Source: Spirochaetia bacterium
GTDB taxonomy: Bacteria; Spirochaetota; Spirochaetia; SZUA-6; Bin103
Reading direction: 5' to 3'
DNA: 64,000 nt
NCBI GenBank assembly: GCA_965208575.1
Contig: CBDBOV010000003.1
Coordinates: 224,001-288,000, forward strand
The position numbers and the translations under genes are program-made. Numbering within the stretch: the stretch's first letter is position 1; every line of letters begins with the position of its first letter. The notes beneath the pieces are model-generated. The model did not search any database, was not told the origin of the DNA, and saw only the letters and a program-made list of their open reading frames with translations. Shown here piece after piece: positions 20,318 through 63,768 of this stretch.

Positions 20318-20394
20318 ACCACCATGATACCGATCCTGCCGGCACAATTCAGCCGCCCGCGGGCCGCTTCCAAGCGCACCTGTATGGCGACCGG

Positions 20395-20740
20395 CGCCCA
20401 CCCTGCGTCAACGGGCCGATGGCCTGGCCCCAGCCAGCGCGGGCCCTGCCCCAGCGCGCCCACATCGACCCGAGGCCTACCCTGCGTCAACGGGCTAATG
20501 GCCTGCTCTGGCCAGCGTGCGGCGGTGCCATGAGCGACCACATGGCGCACCGAAGCCCAAATTGCGTCAACGGGCTGATGGCCTGAATCAGCCAGCGCAC
20601 GGCGGTCCCAAGAGCGACCACATGGCGACCCGAAGCCCACCCTGCGTCAACGGGCTGATGGCCTGAATCAGCTAGCGCAGGGCGGTCTCAAGCGCGCCCA
20701 CCCGGCGACCCTGCGCCCACCTTGCGTCATCGGGCCGGTG
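20395..20740. repeat. Degenerate tandem array with ~80-bp period (4.3 units)
   Basis: Core TGCGTCAACGGGC recurs near 20404, 20483, 20563, 20643, 20723 (last copy variant); intervening parts are homologous too. Confidence 0.85.
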
Positions 20741-20833
20741 GCGCAACAATGCGGGCGCGGGCGCTGCTCTCGGGCGCGGGCCGCACCAAATGCAGCGCGT
20801 GTCGATCGCGCGGGACTTGAGGAACTACCAGCC

Positions 20834-28093: not shown

Positions 28094-28394
28094 GTCTGGC
28101 TCACGGATATACGGGCGTCAGAGACGCTCAGAAGTCATTTGCCGAGCCGGGTGATGCCGCCCACGCCGCGATCGGCGCGCAGGTTGCTGCGGAGCGCACG
28201 GAGCGAGGCGCCCCGGACAACTGCACCGAGGTGCGTTGCCCGGGGCAGGGTCATGACAATTCCCCACCGCCGGGACGGGGTAGGCGACGAGGTTGCGACA
28301 CCGGAGCCGTCGGGATCGAACGGGGCGGAGGAGATGCTGTACCCCGCTGACGGACGGAGGGCGTAGCCCGACCGGAGTCAGCCGGCGCGGTGCC

Positions 28395-29966
28395 GTGGAG
28401 GCCACCGTGGACGACGCCGAGATGGCGGACCAGGCAGCCAAGCTGCTCGCTTCCGGGATGAGCGGCTCAGCCTGCGCTCGCGAACTCGGCATCCCGGTGA
28501 GCACCTTCAACGAGAACCGCCGCGCCGGCGTCATCACAGATCCCACCCGGGAGCCCGCCGCCAGCGCCGAGGTTGCGCCGGCGGCCACCACCACTGATCA
28601 CCCGGTCAGCACCGCCGCCGCGGTCAGCGACCCGGCGGTCGCCACTGAGCGCGCCAGCCGCGACGCCCGCGACAAGCACGCGCCCATGGGCCGCGCGGCG
28701 CGCGACGTGGAACGCCGCACGCTCGCCAGAGCCGGCCTGCTGACCGAGGCCACACCAGCGTTCGTCGAGCCCGCCCACGCGGTCGCTGGCGGCGGCGTGC
28801 TGGCCGCACTGGCGATGCTGCTGCGCGAGGGCCTGCTCACCGCCGCCAACCGCCTGTTCCGCCTGCCGGCCGGATTCTACGGCCTGACCACCATCCTCCT
28901 GTTCGTCGCCTGCATGACCCTGGCCCGGGTGCGCAACCCCGAGAGCCTGCGCTACCAGGCACCCGGCGAGTGGGGCGCCATCCTCGGCCTCGACCGCTGT
29001 CCGGAGACCAAGACGCTGCGCCGCAAGATCAGGCTGCTGGCCAGCGCCGAGCACACCGTGCGCGATTGGCAATCGGTACTGGCGCGTACCTGGGCCAGCG
29101 AGCACGACGACGACTGGACGACGCTGGCCGTGGATGGCCACGTGAAGGTGTACACCGGGCGCAACGGGCGGTTGCCGAAACACTTCGTCGCACGCCAGAA
29201 GCTGTGTCTGCCGGCGTCGGTGAGCTACTGGATCAACGCCCTCGGCGGCGCACCGCTGCTGTGCCTGCACAAGGCGCTGGACCCGAAGCCGGTGAATGCG
29301 ATCAAGCACGACGTGGTGCCGCAGTTGCAGCACCTGGGGGTGGTGACCGAAGCGGCCCCCGACCTGACCGGAGCACCGGCCGGTACCCCGCAGCTGACCC
29401 TGGTGTTCGACCGCGAGGGCTGGAGCCCGGACCTGTTCAAGCGCCTGGCCCGGCGTGGCATCGCCTGCATCACCTGGCACAAGAACTTCAACGGCGCGGA
29501 CTGGCTGCCGGAAGACTTCCACACCTTCGAGGTACCGATCCATGGTCCCGCCGGCACCAGCACGACTGCGGTTGATCTGGCCGAGCAGCCGATCATGCTG
29601 CGCAACGGGCTGGTGGTGCGCCAGATCCGGCGGCGTCTGGCCAACGGTCGTCAGGTGGCGGTGATCACCACGCACCCGCAGATGCCGTTGGCGCAGGTCG
29701 CCGGCGCCATGTTCTCGCGCTGGTCGCAGGAGAACTTCTTCAAGTACCTGCGCGAGCAGTTCAACCTTGACGCGCTGCCGAGCCATGACCTTGCGCCGCC
29801 GGAGCCCGACGCACGGGTCGTGAACCGGTGCGCCGGGCCCTGGAAAAGAGCATCAGGCGGGTACGCAGCCGGCTGGCAGCGGTCCGCAATCGCCTCGCCG
29901 AGGCACTGCAGGGACGGCACCGGGACTCCGCCACCCGGCTTACGGTCGCGGATAAAGTTGCACTGA
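28395..29966 (+). pseudogene. Putative DDE transposase, frameshifted/truncated
   Basis: PGEWGAILGLDRCPE, AVDGHVKVY, VFDREG, RWSQENFFKY; frame changes near 29826 (RRALEKSIRR continues in another frame). Confidence 0.7.
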
Positions 29967-30108: not shown

Positions 30109-31383
30109 TCATTTTGCCGTGCGACCGCTGCCACCACGCTCCTCGCTCGGTGTTTGCACCGTGCTTGGTGCGGCCTTGGCGGTCTTGCTGACGTTCAGCT
30201 GCAGCAGATCCTCGGTCAACCTGGTCAGCTCGCGCTTGAGGGCGACCGGATTCAACGTCGCGTACTGCTGCTTGAGGCGGTTCTTCACCTTCTCGCTCAC
30301 CGACTCGGAGGCCAGCATGCGGTGATACGGCGTCTGCGGGTCGTCATAGATGCGGCGCACCTTGCTGCCGGTGCGGGTTTTCTTCACCAGCTTCACCGAG
30401 GGATAGAAGAAGTTCACCAGCAGGCACAGCGGGCGGTATATCGCGTTGAGGGCAGCCAGTTCCCGGTCGGTGTCGTAACGCAGGTGGCCGACCGCCCGTC
30501 GCACCACGTGGCCATTCTTCTGCTCGACGTAGCAGGTGTCGTTCTTGCGATGCGGGCGACCCCGAGTGAACGTGATGCCGTGCGCTTCGCAATAGCGCAG
30601 CAAATGATGATTGATGAACTCGCTGCCGTTGTCGGTGTCGATCCCCCGCATCACGATCGGCAGGCTCTGCCGGGCAGCGTCGATCGCCTCGTGGGTCCAG
30701 CGCTGCGCCTTGTTCTGCACGCCGTACAGGTCGACCCAGCCGGTGTCAACGTCGGTGATGGTGAGCGTGTGGCAGAAGTCGCCTGACGCGTTGCCGCCTT
30801 CATGGCCCACCAAGTCGATCTCGAAGAAGCCCGGCTCCTGCTCGTCCCAGTCAGCGAAGGTTCGGATCGCGATCTGATCCTTCAGGAGGGTGCCCGGCTT
30901 GGTGTGCGTGCGACCCTTCAGGCGCAGCCGTGCGCGCTCCTGCTGCAGCAGCCGGTCGATGGTCGCGGCGCTGATGGTCTGCAGCTTGCCGCGCACCGCT
31001 GCGGTCAGCTCGATCTCGCCGAACGACTCCAGCGTCGGCAGCATGGTGCGCAGCACGACCACCAGGCGCTTGCCGCACATGCAGTCGAACACGTACCAGA
31101 TCAGCTTCAGAGCGACCAGCACCTCCTGGTCGTAGCGCCGCGGTCGCACGCGGCGCTGGGCAGGCCGCGGACGCCCGACCACCAGCTTCACCAGTGTGCC
31201 GTCGACTCGCACCATGCGGGTCCGTCCCCACCAGGTCAACAGATGGATCGCGTACTTGCGCTGGTACCCGGTCGACTCGACGAACTCGTCGAGTATGCGC
31301 CCCTTCTCCTTCTTGCCCGCCCGACGATACCGCTGCGCGTGCTGCTCGGTGAGCTCTCGCCTTGAACTCATCTTCAACCCCAT
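30109..31383 (-). CDS. Integrase-core (rve) DDE transposase
   Basis: SAATIDR, GFFEIDLVGH, DTDNGSEF, YVEQKN; GGAGGAG RBS. Confidence 0.9.
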   Translation of the reverse strand: MGLKMSSRRELTEQHAQRYRRAGKKEKGRILDEFVESTGYQRKYAIHLLTWWGRTRMVRVDGTLVKLVVGRPRPAQRRVRPRRYDQEVLVALKLIWYVFDCMCGKRLVVVLRTMLPTLESFGEIELTAAVRGKLQTISAATIDRLLQQERARLRLKGRTHTKPGTLLKDQIAIRTFADWDEQEPGFFEIDLVGHEGGNASGDFCHTLTITDVDTGWVDLYGVQNKAQRWTHEAIDAARQSLPIVMRGIDTDNGSEFINHHLLRYCEAHGITFTRGRPHRKNDTCYVEQKNGHVVRRAVGHLRYDTDRELAALNAIYRPLCLLVNFFYPSVKLVKKTRTGSKVRRIYDDPQTPYHRMLASESVSEKVKNRLKQQYATLNPVALKRELTRLTEDLLQLNVSKTAKAAPSTVQTPSEERGGSGRTAK

Positions 31384-31514
31384 CTCCTCCGGAACCTCCT
31401 CACGTCCCTCGGAGAGGCTCCAACCGGACCCGGAAGGTCCAGCCCGTTCGGTTAGATTTTTAGATGAGGCATGCTTTCGCTACGGTTAGATTTTCGATGA
31501 GTCAATGCGCGCGC

Positions 31515-31544
31515 TTGACACGGATTTGGGCGGCCGCGTACACT
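31515..31544 (+). promoter_or_regulatory. Sigma70-like promoter, module A
   Basis: TTGACA-18nt-TACACT; nearly identical copy at 63636-63665 (-). Confidence 0.7.
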
Positions 31545-31881
31545 CGTCCGCGAATGGGCACTGACAGCGTGCAGCCCAGCCGCCGACTACCGCCAGCCGC
31601 GCAGCAGCCGACCTCGCGGCGCCGGTGCTGACGGCGGCACCATTGATGCGTGTGGCGCACAGCCGCCACCCGTCTGTGTATTCAACGGCCGACCGCGTCG
31701 CCCGCAAACTCCACCGGTCCACACCAGCCGGCCGGTCCACACCGGCCGGTGCCGGCACTTCCATACAGACAACCGACCCATCTGCGCCCGACACAGTTGT
31801 CGACGACAGATGCGCGCTAGCTGCGCCACCGGTTGGTCCGATGGCCGAGCCACCGTCCTGTCAAGCTCCCCAAACAGCTCA

Positions 31882-32075
31882 AGAAAGGGGGTGCAAATGA
31901 TACTCAAAGAGCCGTACGCGCGCGCGGCGTGAGCCCGGGTGAACCCGGTGAGTCACACGCCGCGCGCTTCTGACAACTTGACTCAGGGCAGCCTGCGTTG
32001 CAGGCGTGAGCGTAGCCAGGGAGCGGCAAGTCGCTCCGCAATACGCTCAAAAAACAACGATCTATGGAGAAAACC
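31882..32075 (+). ncRNA. Conserved structured leader motif, copy A (contains uORF 31897-31932 MILKEPYARAA)
   Basis: Alignable with copies B-D; three stems with compensatory changes. Confidence 0.7.
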
Positions 32076-33902
32076 ATGAATGGTATCGTAAGCGTGATGA
32101 GGACCTTCGCGGTTGCGTTGGTCCTCATCCTGACCGCGACCGGCCTGTGGGCCGCTGGCGAAGAAGAGGCACCGGCAGCGGCGGCCGAGAAGGAAATGGT
32201 GCTCGACCCGACCACCGGGGAGATGGTGGAGGCGCCACGATATGGCGGGACGATAACCGTTCTCAGTCATGATTGGGCTCCTGCCACTATGGACCCGTAT
32301 TTTTCGGCCCCTCAGGCCCTTCAGTATCTCACCCAGGTTCTAGAGAAGCTGGCCATTGGCGACTGGGGAATAGACAGGGACGTATATGACTGGTCGGGCC
32401 CCCCGGTCTTTCCTATGAGTGCCATGCGCGGGGCGCTGGCGGAAAGCTGGGAGATTTCCTCGGATAACCTCACTTATACCTTCAAGATCCGCCAGGGCGT
32501 TCAGTTCCACGACAAGGCACCGGTGAACGGCCGGGAGATGACTGCCAAGGACGTAGAATACAGCTTTCAACGCATGTTGGGAAGTAAGCTGACAGGGACC
32601 GAGTTCAGTGAAACCGAACCTTCCCCCCACATTGGTACTTGGAAGGCTAGACAGGTCGAATCGGTGACGGCGACGGACGAATGGACGGTTGTCATGAAGC
32701 TGAAACAGCCAGACCCCATGGCGCTGAGGGATAGCATCGACACGACCGTGTTTTACATGATTCCAAGGGAGGTAATCGATACATACGGTGACATGAAGGA
32801 TTGGCGGAACGCGGTCGGCACCGGACCCTTTGAGATGGCTGAGTATGTCGAGGGCAGCTCTATAACCTATACGAAGCATCCCAACTACTGGAGCTTCGAC
32901 GAAAAATTCCCGGACAACCGCCTGCCCTATGTTGACGAGATGAGGTTCGTGTTCATGACCGAGCCAGCAACGAAAATTGCCGCGCTGCGCACGGCTAAGG
33001 TCGATATCCAGGGCAGTCTCACGTACGCGCTCAAAAACAAGGACGACATGGAGAGGCTGCAACGGACCAACCCTGACATCGTGATAACCGAGCATCCTAA
33101 TCGGTCGGACTACGGTATCGGCATGAACACGCAGAAGGCGCCATTTGATGACATCCAGGTACGCAAGGCAATGCAGATGGCACTGGACCGTGAGACACTT
33201 CACAATACCTACTTCAAGGGGTGGGGAAGCTGGACACCTCACTCATTGCTGGCCAACGATATGCCAGTAGTTGGCACCGCATTCGAAGAGTGGCCCGAAG
33301 AGCTCAAGAAGATCTATGACTACGACCCGACAGAGGCCGAGAGGCTCCTTGATGAGGCGGGGTATCCGCGCGGCGCCGACGGCATCAGGTTCAAGCTCAC
33401 AATGGGACATTGGGAAGGCGGCGATCTGGACTATGCACAATTGGTAGCCGTTACCTACTTTCGTGACATTGGCGTTGAGGTAGAAGTTGAGCCAGTGCCA
33501 GGTGCGGAGTGGGCAAGTTACATTAACGCTGCACAGTGGGACATGTTTGGTGGTATGACAATGGCGGCGAAGTATGGTAATCCCCTGGGTTTTTTGAGTC
33601 AGCTCGGGACGGGTGCTTCTGCGAACCGCTGCAATTGCGCCGATCCGGCTTATGACGCCATTTTGGAAGCCGCCGGAAATGCAACCACGGAAGAGGAGTT
33701 TTTGCTGCAGGTAAGAGAGCTGATTGAGCACATAAAAGAGCAGGTTTGGTTCGTCTCGGGCCCGCAAATCCCATTACTAGGCGTGCACCAACCGTGGGTC
33801 AAAGGTCTCAACAAGGAATTTTGGCTGGGAAGTAACAAGACAAATGCCATCGTCCCCCGCCTCTGGGTCGACCAGGAGTTGAAGGCAGCGATGGGTTTTT
33901 AG
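32076..33902 (+). CDS. Family-5 (DppA/OppA-like) substrate-binding protein A
   Basis: PRYGG, LAESWE, GTGPF, NRLPYVD, PFDDIQVRKA, AGYPRGADG. Confidence 0.92.
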   Translation: MNGIVSVMRTFAVALVLILTATGLWAAGEEEAPAAAAEKEMVLDPTTGEMVEAPRYGGTITVLSHDWAPATMDPYFSAPQALQYLTQVLEKLAIGDWGIDRDVYDWSGPPVFPMSAMRGALAESWEISSDNLTYTFKIRQGVQFHDKAPVNGREMTAKDVEYSFQRMLGSKLTGTEFSETEPSPHIGTWKARQVESVTATDEWTVVMKLKQPDPMALRDSIDTTVFYMIPREVIDTYGDMKDWRNAVGTGPFEMAEYVEGSSITYTKHPNYWSFDEKFPDNRLPYVDEMRFVFMTEPATKIAALRTAKVDIQGSLTYALKNKDDMERLQRTNPDIVITEHPNRSDYGIGMNTQKAPFDDIQVRKAMQMALDRETLHNTYFKGWGSWTPHSLLANDMPVVGTAFEEWPEELKKIYDYDPTEAERLLDEAGYPRGADGIRFKLTMGHWEGGDLDYAQLVAVTYFRDIGVEVEVEPVPGAEWASYINAAQWDMFGGMTMAAKYGNPLGFLSQLGTGASANRCNCADPAYDAILEAAGNATTEEEFLLQVRELIEHIKEQVWFVSGPQIPLLGVHQPWVKGLNKEFWLGSNKTNAIVPRLWVDQELKAAMGF

Positions 33903-35024: not shown

Positions 35025-35042
35025 AAGGGGGAAATCGTGCAT

Positions 35043-35975
35043 ATGAGCGACGCCACAGGGGTACCATCACCAGTAATCGAGGCAAACAGACGGAGCCCGC
35101 TGGCTGATTTCTTTATCAGGCTGGTAACGGAGAAGCCGGTGGGTACTGCCTGCGGGATTATCATATTGATATTGATCCTTGTCGCTATCTTTGGCGGTGT
35201 TCTGACTCCTTATCCATATGATGAAGCAAACATTCATGACATGATGAAGGGCCCATCAGCCCAGTATCTGCTGGGTACCGACCAGTTGGGGCGAGACTTG
35301 TTGAGCCGCATTATCTACGGGGCTCGTATTTCGCTACTTGTCGGTCTGACCGTGACCACTATCAGTGTTGTCGTCAGTACCCTGATAGGCGGCACTTCAG
35401 GATTCATTGGCGGTAAATTGGACCTGGGTGTGCAGCGATTTGTCGATGCTTGGCTGGCTTTCCCGGGACTGCTCCTGCTGCTGACGATGATGTCCATAGT
35501 CGGGCGCGGTCTGCCGCAGATAATACTGGTCCTGGGGATATCAGGAGGTATTGGCGGCAGTTGAGTAATCAGAGGCGCCGTGATCGGCATCAAAGAGAAT
35601 GTGTATTTTCAGGCGGCCGACGCCGTTGGCTCGTCGAGATTGCGAACATTCATGCGCCACGTGGTGCCGAATGTCCTGCCTATCGTAATCATAATGTTCA
35701 GCGTCACCATAGGTGGCGTAATCCTGTCGTTGGCTGCTCTGGGCTTCCTCGGATTTGGTCTGCCTCCCGGCACTCCTGATTGGGGGGGTCTGCTCAGCCG
35801 GGAGGGACGCCAGTACATGGAGGCAGCGCCGCGGCTGGCGTTCTGGCCCGGTCTGTGCCTGACTATCACCGTCTTCAGTCTCAACATGTTCGGCGACGCC
35901 GTGCGAGACCTGCTCGACCCGCGGCTGCGGGGTGGCAGCGGTCGTCTCGCTGGCGGCGGCGCCACGTCGGTTTGA
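35043..35975 (+). pseudogene. DppC-like permease A with internal nonsense codon
   Basis: TGA at 35562-35564 where paralogues have Arg (GSRV); same frame continues to DAVRDLLDPRL. Confidence 0.88.
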
Positions 35976-36377: not shown

Positions 36378-36668
36378 CGCACCGCAAAGTCATGCACGGC
36401 CCCTGTAGGCCCCCACAACAAGTCAAGTTAGCCCCCCCCCAGCTCTTCATATCCCGTAGATCGCTAACTGCTCGGGCTGGTCGCCCCGCGGGCGCCTTCG
36501 GCTTCAGCACTGGGGGTAGCGGCCGGCTCCGTGTACGTCGGCTCAGTCCACGTTCGTTCACTGACCAGCGCAACCGTCCTGGATCCCCGGTCCCCAACTC
36601 ACCGTCGCAAACGCAACGCCGTCAGGTATCTGGCTGGCCACCCTGTGGCCTGTGGCCCCGAAAAAAGC

Positions 36669-36869
36669 AGAAAGGAGGTGCACGCTGGTACTCGAGCAAC
36701 CACGCAACGCGCGCGGCCTGAGCCCATGAGCCCATGAGTGACGTGCCGCGCGCTGGACGATCCGAGATTGCCGTCGCTGCGCAGCCGCCCGCGTTGCGGG
36801 CGCGAAAGTGCGCAGGGAGTGGCGATTCGCTACAAATATACTCTCAAAACCCAACATACGGAGTTACGT
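36669..36869 (+). ncRNA. Conserved structured leader motif, copy B (uORF degenerate)
   Basis: AAAGGAGGTGCA, GCGCGCGGC/GCCGCGCGC stem, GCCCGC-GTT-GCGGGC, TACTCTC. Confidence 0.65.
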
Positions 36870-41549: not shown

Positions 41550-41565
41550 CCCCCCCCCCCCCCCC
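41550..41565 (+). repeat. C16 homopolymer in leader C
   Basis: Directly visible; C9 at the equivalent site 36432-36440, G11 at 55974-55984. Confidence 0.9.
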
Positions 41566-41785
41566 AGCGTTTTCGTACATCCGGTAGATCACTAACCGTA
41601 ACCGCTCGGGCTGGTCGCGCCGCGGGCGCTTTCGCCTTCAGCACCGGGGTAGCGGGCGGCTGCGCCGGGCGCCGGCTCAGTCCACGTTCGCTCACTCGTT
41701 CACTGACGCCCGCCACGGTCCTGGATCCCCCTTCCACTGGTCAATCACGTCATCACATCCACAACAACCCGGTATTCCCGGCGTA

Positions 41786-41964
41786 CAGGAGGTGCAAAGT
41801 GGTACGCAAAGAACCGGACGCGCGCGCGGCGTAAGCCCCGTGAGTCACGCGCCGCGCGCCTGCGGAGTTGACTCTGTTCGAACGCCTGCGTTGCGGGCGC
41901 TGAGAGTACCGGAAGCGGCAATCGCTACCCGATACTCTCGAAATCTTTCTATCAGGAGTTGGTT
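41786..41964 (+). ncRNA. Conserved structured leader motif, copy C (uORF 41799-41834 MVRKEPDARAA)
   Basis: AGGAGG, GTG start, same stems as A and D. Confidence 0.7.
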
Positions 41965-43218
41965 ATGAACCATATAGCAAAGACCTGCGCGGTTGCGCTG
42001 GTCCTGGGCCTTGTGCTGACCGCAACCGGCCTGTGGGCCACCGGCGGCACGGAGGAGCCGGCAGCCGCCGCCGAGAAGGAAATGGTGCTCGATCCCACCA
42101 CCGGCGAAATGGTGGAGGCCCCACGATATGGCGGGACATTGACCTACGCCGAACGGGTCGAGCCGCCGGGTACCGACCCCTGGAACCAGGGCCACGGACC
42201 AAGGGGCGTCGATGGCGTTGCAGAGAAACTGGGCATCGCGAACTGGGGAATAGATAGGGATGAATTTGGCTTCGAAAGCAGGTACGTCCCGCTATTTGCC
42301 ATGAGACCGAATCTGGCGGAAAGCTGGGAAAAGCCCGACCCGCTGACTATTATCTTCAAAATCCGCCCGGGCGTTCGCTGGCACGATAAGGCACCGATGA
42401 ACGGTCGGGAGCTAACTGCCCAAGATGTCGAATACAACTTTCACCGCTATACGGGTCTGGGCAGCGGCTTCACCGAACCTAGCCCCTTCGACCCGATGAA
42501 GGCCGCGACATGGGAATCGATTACGGCCACCGACGATTCCACGGTTGTTTTTAAGTTAAAGGCGCCACGCAACGACGCGCTGGAGACTATCATCAGCGGC
42601 TGGTTTCTTTTGATAATGCCCCCCGAGGTAATCGAGCAACATGGTGACGTTCAGGACTGGAGGAACCTGGTAGGCACCGGGCCCTATATGCTGACGGACT
42701 GGGTCAAGGGCAGCTCGATGACCTATACCAAGAATCCGGACTACTGGGGCACCGACGAAAAATACCCAGAGAACCGGTTGCCCTATATTGACCAGTTAAG
42801 ACGGGTGATTATGCCCGAACAAGCAACATTTCTGGCGGCACTGCGCTCGGGTAAGCATGATATCATAGGTATACCCGGCGACACTCAGTTGGGGGATATC
42901 GGCCAGGTAGAGGCCCTCAAACGGACCAACCCCGAGATCAGGTTGTACCCGTGGTATCTAAGGTCGGGCACCTCTGTTACTTTCAACCTGCGCAGGGAGT
43001 CGCTCTTTAACGACATCCGGGTACGCCAGGCCATGCAGATGGCCATTGACCTGGAGACAATGTGGTACATATGGGGTCCTAAACCTCCCTCGTTCAATGC
43101 ATCCCAGCCATGGATCAAAGGCTATAACGGTGAAGTCGAACTGGGACTGTCTCGCTCAGTTGCCATGTTGGCCCGCATCTGGATTGATAGTGATCTGAAG
43201 CAAGAGATGGGAGGCTAG
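41965..43218 (+). pseudogene. Family-5 SBP C with large in-frame deletion
   Basis: AIDLET joined directly to MWYIWG near 43060; lacks about 190 aa including YPRGADG. Confidence 0.82.
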
Positions 43219-50535: not shown

Positions 50536-51444
50536 GTCACAGCTTGTTGAGCGTCCGCAGCAAAACCCGGCGCACGGGCATCAAAAAACAACGTCTACTC
50601 CCCTTTCTCGGAGCTTGGAGATATGGACTTCCTTCGATGTCTCGCTCAAGGGGTTGCCGGACAAACTGACAGTGTCCCCCTCAGAGAGCCCGCGGTTCTC
50701 GACCAGTGGTGAGATGTCGACTATCTGGTTGAACATGAGGTCGAGCTGAGTGAGATTAGTCAGGGAAGCTAGCGGCGAGAGGTCACTTATCTGATTCTGC
50801 TCAAGGCTGAGCGAGGTGATGCTGGTGAGGGAAGCTAGCGGTGAGACGTCGCTTATCTGGTTCTGCTCGAGACTAAGCGCGGTTAAGTTGGTCAGCGGAG
50901 CCAGTACGGAAGCCAGTAGTGAGAGGTCGCTTAGCTCGTTCCCCGTAAGGTCGAGCTGGGTGAGATTAGTCAGGGAAGCTAGCGGTGTAATGTCGCTTAT
51001 CTGGTTCAATGCAAGGTCGAGCTCAGTGAGGTTAGTCAGAGAAGCCAGTGGTGATATGTCGCTTATCCGGTTCTTCCTAAGGCCGAGATTGGTGAGATTA
51101 GTCAGGGTAGCTAGTGGCGAGATGTCGCTTATCCGGTTGTCGTAAAGGCTGAGCGAGGTGAAGTTGGCGAGCGAAGCCAGTGGTGAGAGGTCGCTTATCT
51201 GTCCATAGTGGAAAACCAGCTCGGTAAGGTTGGTCAAATACTCCAATCCGGCGAGGTCGGTGATCTTGACTCTCGCATATCCCCTGCCTGATTCACGAAG
51301 CGAGGTGATGGTTTCCAGCTCCGAAACATGGATCGGACCTTGATGCTTCTGGATAGCTGCTCTTATGACTCTCTCAAGAGCTATCCCACCGGCCCCTGGG
51401 CCGGCGCAGTCATGAAAGAAACAAGGGTGAGCTATAGTGTGGGC

Positions 51445-53036: not shown

Positions 53037-53084
53037 TTGTTGTTTCTCAGGAGCCTCGTCGGGGATGGTGACCCCTTCGCCCAC

Positions 53085-53195
53085 TTCTTCTGTAGCACTA
53101 ACAGGTTCTTCTGTAGCACTAACAGGTTCTTCTGTAGCACTAACAGGTTCTTCTGTAGCACTGACCGGTTCTTCTGCAGTATTTGCAGGTTCTTC
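53085..53195. repeat. 21-bp coding tandem repeat (EEPVSAT), 5 units
   Basis: TTCTTCTGTAGCACTAACAGG three perfect plus two degenerate copies. Confidence 0.92.
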
Positions 53196-55200: not shown

Positions 55201-55390
55201 ACGTAACTCCGTATCTTGATTTTTGAGAGTATTGCGGAGCGGATTGCCCTCCCTGGCTACTCTCGGGCCCGCAACGCGGACGGCCAGTCCGAGTCAAGCT
55301 CCTGAGGCGCGCGGCGTGTGACTCACCGGGTTCGCCCGGGCTCACGCCGCGCGCGCGTGCGGTTCTTTGAGTATCATTTGCACCTCCTGG
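55201..55390 (-). ncRNA. Conserved structured leader motif, copy D (uORF 55342-55377 MILKEPHARAA)
   Basis: AGGAGG-led uORF; stems as in A. Confidence 0.7.
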
Positions 55391-56158
55391 TGCGCCGGCA
55401 AAAACCGGCAAGGTTGTTGTAGCGACCCGCGGCGGCGCCGAGTCATGCATCGTCGCTCGCAAGGGTGGGGAGCTGCCGCAGGCGGCGCGGCTATGGTGAA
55501 CCCTACACGGGCACGCAGGCGGAAACGCCGGACACAGCCAAGGGAGCACCTACGGTCACGCCGGCCGGTAGCGCCCGGGCCGCGGAGCGGGTGGAGGGAA
55601 GGGGCCTGGCCAAAGGGAATCCGCGCCAGCAAAACGCGTCCCGGACACCGTGCCGGATGGGCGTGCGCAGTGCGCCGGAGCGGATACGTCAAGCAGCGCG
55701 ATCCCTTATAGCGCCATGGCACAGGCGTGCCCCTTCCTTTTGTATGGGTGCCGGCAACGCCCTCTGGTGTGGACTGGTGGAGGTTGCGGCCGACGGGGTC
55801 GGCCGTTGGACTCACGGATGTGCGGCGGGTGTGCGCCACACCGATTGATGGTGCCGCAGCCAGCACCGGCGCCGCGCACTGGGCTGCTGCGCGGTTGGCC
55901 GGGCGGCTCCTAGTAGCGCTCGGCTGTCGCGCGGTTAGCTGAGCGGCTAACGGTAGTCGGGTAGACTGCTGCCGGGGGGGGGGGCGGGTAAACGCGCCGG
56001 CCGCTTTGGGGCTAACGAGTTGCTGCGCGGGTAGGGGTCGTCGGGCATCATGCGCATCGGTCGCGAATCCATGGCCGTCAATGATAGCCGACGTCGCAAG
56101 CGCCGGCCGTCAGGCACATGTGGTAGCATCCGCATCGGTCAGGCTCCCAAGGTTGGTC

Positions 56159-63132: not shown

Positions 63133-63502
63133 AGAGATCGACCTCCGACAAATATTGTTTGAGAGCAGTCATTCCACTGCCGGCCCCTCGCCTGCTCCAT
63201 TCGAGCGAGGGCGACACCCCTTAGCGGTGCAGCCGCCCGGTCTTTCGTTAGTCTCTTGTCGCGTGCCTCCTTTGGCGCGCCGCGCCGAAAGGCAGCCATG
63301 CGCGCCGCCGCGCGTGGTGGCGGTGCTGCACGTCACCCATCTGCTTCTTGCTGCCGGCAAAGTCGCTACGCATGTTGATGTGGACTGGTGGAGTCGGCCG
63401 ACGTCGGCCGTTGGAGGCACGGATGCGTGGCGGGTGTGTGCCACGCGGATGGCTGGTGCCGCGCTCAGCACCGGCGCCGAGCGGCTGGCTGTCGCGCGGT
63501 CG

Positions 63503-63595
63503 GGTAGTCGGGTAGTCGGTAGTCGGGTAGTCGGTAGTCGGTAGTCGGTAGTCGGTAGTCGGTAGTCGGTAGTCGGTAGTCGGTAGTCGGTAGTC
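63503..63595. repeat. Heptamer SSR (GGTAGTC) x13 in leader E
   Basis: Directly visible; two single-G interruptions. Confidence 0.95.
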
Positions 63596-63635
63596 GGTGG
63601 CTGGGCTGGATGCTGTCGGTGCCCATTTGCGGACG

Positions 63636-63665
63636 AGTGTAGAGGCCGGCCCAAATCCGTGTCAA
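63636..63665 (-). promoter_or_regulatory. Sigma70-like promoter, module E
   Basis: TTGACA-18nt-TACACT. Confidence 0.7.
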
Positions 63666-63768
63666 GCGCGACCCACCGCGTTCACCGCGTTGCGACACCG
63701 CCAACCGGCCACTGCGCTGGCTGTCGTCATGGCTCGTCATCATTCGTCGAACCCGTAGGCGAGGCACA

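Follow-up and report, generated by a model that had tools for sequence, protein, structure and literature searches.

The leader peptides TnaC and SpeFL, of 24 and 34 codons, arrest the ribosome in a ligand-dependent manner at or near their stop codons. In the translational attenuators of erm and cat genes, the 3' part of a very short open reading frame (ORF) forms one arm of a hairpin, such that a paused ribosome would remodel the leader, and in the trp, his and leu attenuators and the pyrBI leader an ORF overlaps one arm of a strong hairpin, with the position of the ribosome deciding the fold. The RAPP/RAGP arrest peptides ApdA, ApdP and SecM carry R-A-P followed by P, or R-A-G followed by P, at the point of arrest, as outlined in PMC10951233. 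Here we describe a leader in the genome of a Spirochaetia bacterium (assembly GCA_965208575.1), present in a stretch of 64,000 nucleotides of contig CBDBOV010000003.1 (positions 224,001 to 288,000; hereafter the window, numbered from its first letter), in which an 11-codon ORF that is very probably translated ends within one arm of a GC-rich hairpin, P1, upstream of genes encoding substrate-binding proteins (SBPs) of Opp/Dpp-type uptake systems. It is a leader family restricted to one genus, with about 60 copies per genome.

By analogy, the leader would be a case of ribosome-dependent control, closest in its working to TnaC and SpeFL and to the erm and cat leaders, while belonging to neither group. 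Judged from its sequence, it holds a short, probably translated ORF with its own Shine-Dalgarno (SD) site in the leader of a regulated catabolic or uptake operon, with conserved residues near the C-terminus and the stop codon as the likely point of action, all of which recalls TnaC and SpeFL. It differs from these in that the ORF has 11 codons and its stop lies within a GC hairpin, in that some 50 copies per genome stand before paralogous SBP genes, and in that no sequence likeness is claimed and neither a rut-like tract nor a ligand is known for it. As in the erm and cat leaders, the 3' part of the ORF is a hairpin arm; unlike them, the leader has no predicted link between P1 and the ribosome-binding site (RBS) of the downstream gene and no antibiotic-resistance context. 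An erm-like unmasking of the SBP RBS was rejected, as blocking the 5' arm of P1 had no such effect in 47 folded copies. The overlap with a strong hairpin arm is shared with the trp, his and leu attenuators, from which the leader differs in lacking a regulatory codon run outside the stem, in having no U-tract terminator or antiterminator that could be found, and in its conserved peptide sequence. Its A-R-A-A run might pass for tandem regulatory codons, but it coincides with the GC stem and its first Ala varies. P1 as an intrinsic terminator was rejected for want of a U-tract, by a test of low power in this genome, and as far as is testable the leader is not a classical amino-acid attenuator. 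Like the RAPP/RAGP peptides in the outline given in PMC10951233, it has Arg-Ala two and one residues before the P-site residue (R9-A10-A11, then the stop), but its A site would hold a stop codon, its R-A-A is dictated by the stem, and its downstream gene encodes an SBP_bac_5 protein, not Sec or YidC. Membership is ruled out by the hallmarks outlined there (PMC10951233), since the peptide ends in R-A-A-stop and precedes an SBP_bac_5 gene.

A leader ORF in fixed position before SBP genes

The window holds three intact ORF copies and one degenerate copy, three of them with coordinates for their match to a covariance model (CM) of the leader:

31897..31932, + strand: leader ORF copy A, ATG 31897 to TGA 31930-31932, MILKEPYARAA and stop
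31887..31891, + strand: SD site of the copy A ORF, GGGGG (AGGAGG in most copies)
41799..41834, + strand: leader ORF copy C, GTG 41799 to TAA 41832-41834, MVRKEPDARAA and stop; CM match 41781-41945
55342..55377, - strand: leader ORF copy D, ATG 55377 to TGA 55344-55342, MILKEPHARAA and stop; CM match 55219-55395
36685..36729, + strand: degenerate leader ORF copy B, CTG start, LVLEQPRNARGLSP, stop inside the P1 loop; CM match 36667-36851, 113.6 bits

An earlier reading of the window from its sequence alone (the sequence-only reading) had reported the positions and peptides of copies A, C and D, each with an SD, and all of these were recovered unchanged. The purine-rich SD lies 5-9 nt 5' of the ORF in these three copies (AGGAGG in C and D), the copy D peptide is the genome-wide consensus, and copy C represents a subfamily without the hairpin that otherwise occupies the P1 loop. 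The same reading had warned of an aberrant copy B, with good reason: this copy starts with CTG, has lost K-E (LEQP instead) and ends three codons later. Its further warning that a copy E lacks a start holds as well, but there proved to be no detectable leader copy there at all (63345-63135, reverse strand), the CM recognizing only four places in the window.

Searching the 6.5-Mb genome (G000) with the four window copies (nhmmer, E<1e-5) yielded 62 leader matches, 57 of which carry the ORF core. The five matches without the K-E-P anchor, namely window copy B and four partial copies, were left out of the ORF statistics, which are based on 56 distinct G000 copies that were not selected by score (the 57 anchored copies minus one exact duplicate). 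The core of the P1 stem by itself, with two mismatches allowed, occurs 24 times where 23.4 are expected, which is not above chance, and hence it is the whole module that recurs. In 55/57 copies the leader lies 100-290 nt 5' of an SBP homologue on the same strand (blastp E<=1e-53, 30-58% amino-acid identity); one of the other two has a weak downstream SBP match and one has none. Seen from the genes, 51 of the approximately 124 SBP_bac_5 paralogue loci (tblastn) have a recognized leader within 600 nt, and 73 do not.

As aligned across the window copies, the leader is about 180 nt long; it begins at the mini-ORF's SD and extends to the A-rich tract that immediately precedes the SD of the long gene. 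Mean pairwise nucleotide identity among 47 copies rises from 0.42-0.47 in the 100 nt before the ORF SD to 0.77-0.79 across the leader, such that the conserved unit begins sharply at the ribosome-binding site of the mini-ORF. Within the SBP coding sequence of the same copies, identity is 0.71-0.80 over the initial 150 nt and 0.41-0.76 beyond; these first ~150 nt, encoding the signal peptide and linker (32076-32225 in A), are as alike among paralogues as the leader is.

Codon-degenerate variation in the leader ORF

Non-consensus bases at codon positions 1/2/3, with the consensus codon in brackets, are distributed among the 56 copies as follows:

Codon 1 (ATG): 17/6/4
Codon 2 (ATA): 12/6/1
Codon 3 (CTC): 0/9/9
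Codon 4 (AAA): 1/0/9
Codon 5 (GAA): 1/0/12
Codon 6 (CCG): 0/1/12
Codon 7 (CAC): 11/9/8
Codon 8 (GCG): 15/10/6

In codons 3-6 every third base varies, with the degeneracy N, R, R, N: the four-fold third bases take all bases (Leu G 7, A 1, T 1; Pro T 4, A 6, C 2), and the two-fold ones change almost only from A to G (Lys G 9; Glu G 11, C 1). This segment and frame is the most 3-periodic among all segments and phases of the 178-nt leader. Parsimony on a maximum-likelihood SBP tree (52 proteins, median support 0.94) requires 8, 12 and 11 changes at the third positions of the K, E and P codons, respectively, and three in total at their six other positions, the many third-position changes implying many independent events and not one inherited change. 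Set against the possible single-base variants of K/E/P, all synonymous ones are seen (5/5) and few non-synonymous ones (4/22, each a singleton; hypergeometric 0.0016). The comparison of synonymous with non-synonymous change over many copies, which the sequence-only reading had proposed as a check, has thus revealed a synonymous excess in K/E/P.

The signals for translation are preserved alongside. The T and G of the start codon are retained in 50/56 and 52/56 copies amid flanks with 22-27 non-consensus bases, its first base being A, G or T in 53/56, and the SD-region G is retained at -10 in 47/56 and at -7 in 51/56, again surrounded by variable flanks; an SD-like word is found in 45/56. Codon 12 is a stop in 42 copies (TGA 39, TAA 3), and in divergent subfamilies whose frame is shifted the ORF nevertheless terminates within the P1 loop, in 14-codon forms such as VILKEPHHARGPSS followed by the stop. 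Furthermore, non-synonymous changes in K/E/P occur in 3/11 copies without ATG/GTG/TTG, compared to 1/45 with one (Fisher 0.021), or 4/12 compared to 1/45 when window copy B is added (Fisher 0.0055).

Taken together, codon-degenerate variation, an NTG start with an SD, and missense changes in start-less copies argue that translation of the ORF is very probable, with selection acting on the peptide. We know of no RNA-level constraint that predicts the whole signature, which translation with peptide selection does. Purifying selection on L/R3-K4-E5-P6 moreover suggests that the nascent peptide itself matters, beyond the act of translation.

The remaining residues do not bear out two further ideas of the sequence-only reading. 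Residue 7, proposed to confer module specificity, is His in 39/56 copies and otherwise Y (4), R (4), W (2), a stop (2) or D, L, C, Q or S (one each), and all three positions of its codon vary (11/9/8), a pattern that resembles an unconstrained linker and lends no support to a role in specificity. Residue 8 is likewise free to vary (A in 37 copies, P in 6, V and H in 3 each, T and R in 2 each, and G, S or a stop in the rest). The likeness of ARAA to an Ala-Ala degron finds no backing, for R9-A10-A11 and the stop form the GC stem arm, which leaves their conservation uninformative on a degron, and A8 varies; the accompanying caution, that ARAA might be conserved through the stem alone, was apt in that the stem explains R-A-A.

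Predicted structure of the leader RNA

The last sense codons and the stop of the ORF form the 5' arm of P1, a 12-bp GC hairpin, as had been read from the sequence. The elements of the leader in copy A are:

31920..31931, + strand: P1 5' arm, GCGCGCGGCGTG, codons 9-11 and the first 2 nt of the stop
31956..31967, + strand: P1 3' arm, CACGCCGCGCGC, predicted to pair with 31920-31931 (12 bp)
31935..31948, + strand: P1a, inner hairpin CCGGG-TGAA-CCCGG in the P1 loop, variable and missing in some copies
31950..31955, + strand: GAGTCA in the P1 loop, candidate pseudoknot partner of TGACTC 31979-31984
31979..31984, + strand: TGACTC, candidate pseudoknot partner of the P1 loop
31991..32005, + strand: P3, hairpin GCCTGC-GTT-GCAGGC
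32008..32048, + strand: P4, GAGCGTA 32008-32014 with TACGCTC 32042-32048, enclosing P5
32020..32025 and 32032..32037, + strand: P5, GGAGCG with CGCTCC, within P4

The copy A leader folds with a minimum free energy of -82.2 kcal/mol (z = -3.59 compared to shuffles). In an alignment of 102 distinct rows, 94.4% of cells are paired in the whole proposed structure, two pseudoknotted helices included, compared to 33-47% with slid partners, and 12 pairs show changes on both sides, compared to 6.5+/-1.7 in shuffles (1/500). The structure was drawn from the consensus of a sequence too conserved for strong covariation; within this model we consider the helices likely and treat the pseudoknots as candidates. 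P1 is paired in 98.0% of cells over its 12 pairs and is near-invariant, hence showing little covariation, P1a (helix 2) is 84.7% paired with both-side changes at two pairs and 17-20 rows gapped, and P3 (helix 6) is 98.8% paired with both-side changes at 3/5 pairs. In P4, which together with P5 corresponds to helices 7-9, copy A departs from the consensus GAGAGTA/TACTCTC by a compensatory A-U to C-G change. The candidate pseudoknot (helices 3-4) is 94-98% paired, with one pair changed on both sides (AU to GC, two rows) and its last pair left unpaired in 19 rows, and its support is weak. Its GAGTC (31950-31954) and GACTC (31980-31984) are also inverted GANTC words about 30 bp apart, which as DNA could be a protein site or methylation sites instead of an RNA pseudoknot.

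Partners were also considered for the conserved block of the ORF itself. Pairing of ACUCA with UGAGU in the P1 loop, or of UACUC with GAGUA in P4, was rejected because the CTG, CGC and GAGCGTA variants are uncompensated, and an all-against-all scan for double changes with the block returned only noise from hypervariable columns. Rfam 15 gave no match at gathering score in the window, and matches at E<=10 in 31500-32100 were at chance level only (E 0.21-8.2).

A model for control by the terminating ribosome

On balance, the explanation that we favor, and hold somewhat likelier to be right than wrong, is that of a translated leader ORF through which peptide-dependent ribosome occupancy controls P1 and the SBP operon. 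The 36-nt ORF would be a translated upstream ORF opening the ~180-nt structured 5' leader of 51 of the ~124 Opp/Dpp-type SBP genes. When a stop codon occupies the A site, the ribosome shields about twelve further bases downstream. Here it would span the whole P1 5' arm and half of the inner hairpin, a footprint that would make P1 and a ribosome at the ORF end mutually exclusive, and the predicted fold gives a sound structural basis for inferring that the terminating ribosome controls P1. A ribosome reaching or dwelling at the stop would hold open P1 and any pairing that its loop makes, and P1 would form upon failure to initiate or quick departure; in this way, occupancy of the ORF end would determine how the leader folds and, through the fold, what the SBP operon puts out.

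The nascent chain inside the exit tunnel would determine this occupancy, possibly together with a cellular signal. At termination K-E-P, 5-7 residues from the C-terminus, would lie inside the tunnel, and selection on it suggests that the nascent chain influences ribosome dwell time. The sequence comparisons show the ORF with its SD, start and stop, the coding signature, the overlap with P1, the constant placement before SBP genes and the confinement to one genus; translation in vivo, dwelling or stalling at the stop, any ligand and the direction in which the operon would respond are inferred. The SBP start lies about 145 nt past the ORF stop, with three more conserved helices between the two, and unchanged RBS accessibility together with the missing U-tract terminator favors an effect on transcript elongation, processing or stability, exerted through the P1/pseudoknot domain, over unmasking of the SBP RBS. 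Outright arrest and ligand sensing are plausible but putative and, in our estimate, less likely than not. We think it unlikely that MILKEPHARAA belongs to a hitherto undescribed class of very short arrest peptides; in such a peptide, K-E-P would sit in the upper tunnel and R-A-A would occupy the peptidyl-transferase center, and a single shared intracellular signal would delay release at UGA, gating about 50 Opp-type operons at once through the P1/pseudoknot domain.

Counter-evidence and alternative explanations

Several observations weigh against this model. The canonical 11-codon ORF is present in 36/56 copies, with six others being longer, three having a premature stop and 11 lacking ATG/GTG/TTG, and most of the 20/56 copies without it still precede full-length SBP genes. 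Frequent frame loss in otherwise intact modules is what the sequence-only reading had named as a ground for refutation, and in part it is seen, as many of these 20 copies stand before intact SBP genes. L-K-E-P is retained, with third-base differences only, in copies lacking SD and start (C4:1058432, C5:846905, C5:948868 and the copy in genome G008); either the losses are recent, or there is an RNA-level constraint on the block as well. Codon 2 varies contrary to a coding pattern, with A at position 3 in 55/56 copies and I, V, T, A, K or L as its residue, and the ORF uses codons that are in the minority in this genome (ATA 8% of Ile codons, AAA 18%, GAA 35%), which implies that an A-rich unstructured initiation region or some other RNA feature is also selected. 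The copies are only ~10-20% diverged, with third positions unsaturated and A-rich compared to genome usage, and leader variants do not follow the SBP tree, suggesting that concerted evolution, gene conversion or recent spread adds to the conservation. In species with few leader copies the ORF is often damaged: the six copies from the few-copy genomes G004, G007 and G008 comprise one intact ORF, one in-frame 9-codon form, one with a premature TAG, one with a lost stop (+3 codons) and two without a start. Nor was any alternative pairing between P1 and the SBP start found, the unpaired probability of the RBS being 0.425 in the free leader and 0.442 with the P1 5' arm blocked; across 47 copies blocking raised RBS accessibility in four and lowered it in none, as predicted by folding without pseudoknots. 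Finally, 31400-32100 contains no terminator-like site (hairpin plus U-tract), in a test that is weak because such sites are not enriched genome-wide (6 compared to 6.6 expected).

A purely RNA-level element, riboswitch-like or bound by a protein, with the ATACTCAAAGAACC block as a single-stranded recognition site and the ORF incidental, could account for the favorable fold, for the excess of pairs changed on both sides and for the persistence of the block in copies without SD or start, as well as for the invariant A-C across the junction of codons 2 and 3, which is unlike coding sequence. Variation limited to A and G could also arise opposite U or in protein sites of the A-R-N type. Such an element would not predict the exact N, R, R, N degeneracy, the NTG start with SD, or the excess of missense changes in start-less copies; no partner for the block was found, its CTC to CTG and CGC changes are uncompensated, and no Rfam family matches, and we therefore hold it improbable. 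Attenuation by amino-acid supply, in which slowing at the Ala and Arg codons (GCG CGC GCG GCG) when charged tRNA is scarce would open P1 and raise importer expression, draws on the exact placement of the last four sense codons, A-R-A-A, in the stem arm, and on the genes served, which belong to Opp/Dpp-type uptake systems. It strikes us as quite improbable, as the GC stem accounts for these codons, the first Ala is replaceable (A 37/56), neither a U-tract terminator nor an antiterminator pairing was found, and selection on K-E-P would be left unexplained.

That same selection on the amino-acid sequence would suit a released 11-residue peptide acting in trans from ~40 loci, with the hairpin merely tuning its synthesis, and a precedent exists in the 14-residue leader peptide peTrpL, to which a trans function is ascribed in the account in PMC7298713. 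The ORF is, however, always tied to one leader and one gene family and overlaps P1, which speaks for a cis-acting role; constraint is confined to three or four residues, with positions 2, 7 and 8 free, and no partner is known, making this a very improbable account. We give the slimmest chance to a selfish or converted repeat, a cassette spread by recombination or homogenized, in which the ORF would have no regulatory role. The leader is restricted to one genus and its copies are far more alike than the genes behind them, variants lie off the SBP tree with parsimony counts near the raw counts, and transposase and integrase genes adjoin module A, as such a repeat would have it; but position and orientation before SBP genes are fixed in 55/57 copies, the alignments contain no terminal repeats or target duplications, and plain homogenization cannot produce constraint so position-specific that sites with 0-1 changes lie beside sites with 9-30.

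Distribution among related genomes

The leader CM matches 7/10 other genomes of the genus, with at least 66, 43, 35, 33, 5, 2 and 1 matches per leader-bearing genome. Under stricter filters, it matched none of 13 sister-genus genomes and none of 17 genomes from other families of the order, and with filters off no leader was found before the closest SBP homologues of genomes G009, G010 and G011. The two leader-less genus members G009 and G010 have seven SBP homologues each, the closest with a short, unrelated upstream region, and the two sister-genus genomes tested have one and none; the leader is thus found where the SBP family has expanded. The 66 copies drawn from genomes G001, G003, G004, G005, G006, G007 and G008 are mostly top-ranking matches and consequently lean towards the consensus.

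Public records carrying the leader are titled 'MAG: Spirochaetia bacterium'. Among the pattern matches listed outside Spirochaetia-titled records, only two short contigs (RHO3_bin_31 and RHO1_bin_34, the latter labelled Acidobacteriota) match the model. A 4-kb contig labelled Acidobacteriota (JAPPFQ010000701.1) carries a full-score leader (183.5 bits) and is probably a mis-binned contig of the spirochaete lineage. The runs that contain the window stretch are sponge and coral-reef metagenomes, and metagenome contigs scanned with the P1 3'-arm pattern gave four chance matches and no leader.

Genes and repeats around the modules

In module A the leader is followed by the gene that it would control, with OppB/OppC-type permease genes 3' of it:

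32076..33902, + strand: SBP_bac_5 substrate-binding protein gene of module A (Pfam PF00496, E 1.5e-72)
32066..32078, + strand: SD (GGAG) and likely ATG (32076) of the SBP gene, the start being assigned from SD spacing and the alignment of copies

A second, in-frame ATG lies at 32064, 5' of the likely start. Contigs from RNA libraries (four metatranscriptome runs) cover 31823-31935, 31941-32040 and 32012-32157 with 3-4 differences each, DNA carry-over being possible, and fit, weakly, a long 5' leader transcribed with the gene. Such contigs also cover 31501-31701; they speak to presence only, not to starts, strand or level, and uncovered parts carry no meaning.

A second conserved block lies 5' of leaders A, D and E (31500-31790; 55759-55899 and 63380-63700, both reverse strand), with about nine partial copies in the genome (blastn), only some of them beside a leader. 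In A and E it opens with a promoter-like TTGACA-18-TACACT (31515-31544 in A, ~350 nt 5' of copy A), and in module E it includes the heptamer GGTAGTC (opposite strand CCGACTA) repeated in tandem at 63512-63602, a unit that occurs just once there in A and D. The leader of module E itself is of another, unrelated kind (63133-63345, reverse strand), which recurs at C4:384321-384498, C4:1281666-1281832 and C5:329475-329647, at least two of these before SBP genes, and may constitute a second leader family.

Immediately 5' of module A are a Transposase_29 gene (28293-29966, + strand) and a gene with an rve integrase domain (30109-31383, - strand). The OppC-like permease of module A is apparently split (ORFs 35037-35564 and 35580-35975) and the SBP of module C (41959-43218) is shortened to 419 residues, and these are possible pseudogenes among the paralogues. 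Elsewhere in G000, the identical leader copies C3:295774 and C3:301861, 6087 nt apart, suggest a recent tandem duplication of the whole module. Other repeats in the window are a poly-C of ~16 at 41552-41567, a 66-nt period at 50703-51247, a 21-nt tandem at 53064-53195 and an 80-nt period at 20391-20745.

Implications

A literature search returned no description of this leader element, which is no proof of absence. Leader peptides selected for their sequence are rare and have been found operon by operon; here one module of peptide and hairpin is attached to 51 of ~124 members of a transporter family, and is present only in genomes in which the SBP family has expanded. More than 50 copies per genome provide a natural mutagenesis series, and the element is small enough to be studied by cell-free translation without growing the organism. 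If the unlikely reading of MILKEPHARAA as an arrest peptide of a new class holds true, it would amount to a genome-wide nascent-peptide regulon in an uncultured sponge symbiont, and the sharing of one module suggests a common signal over the nutrient-uptake repertoire of that symbiont.

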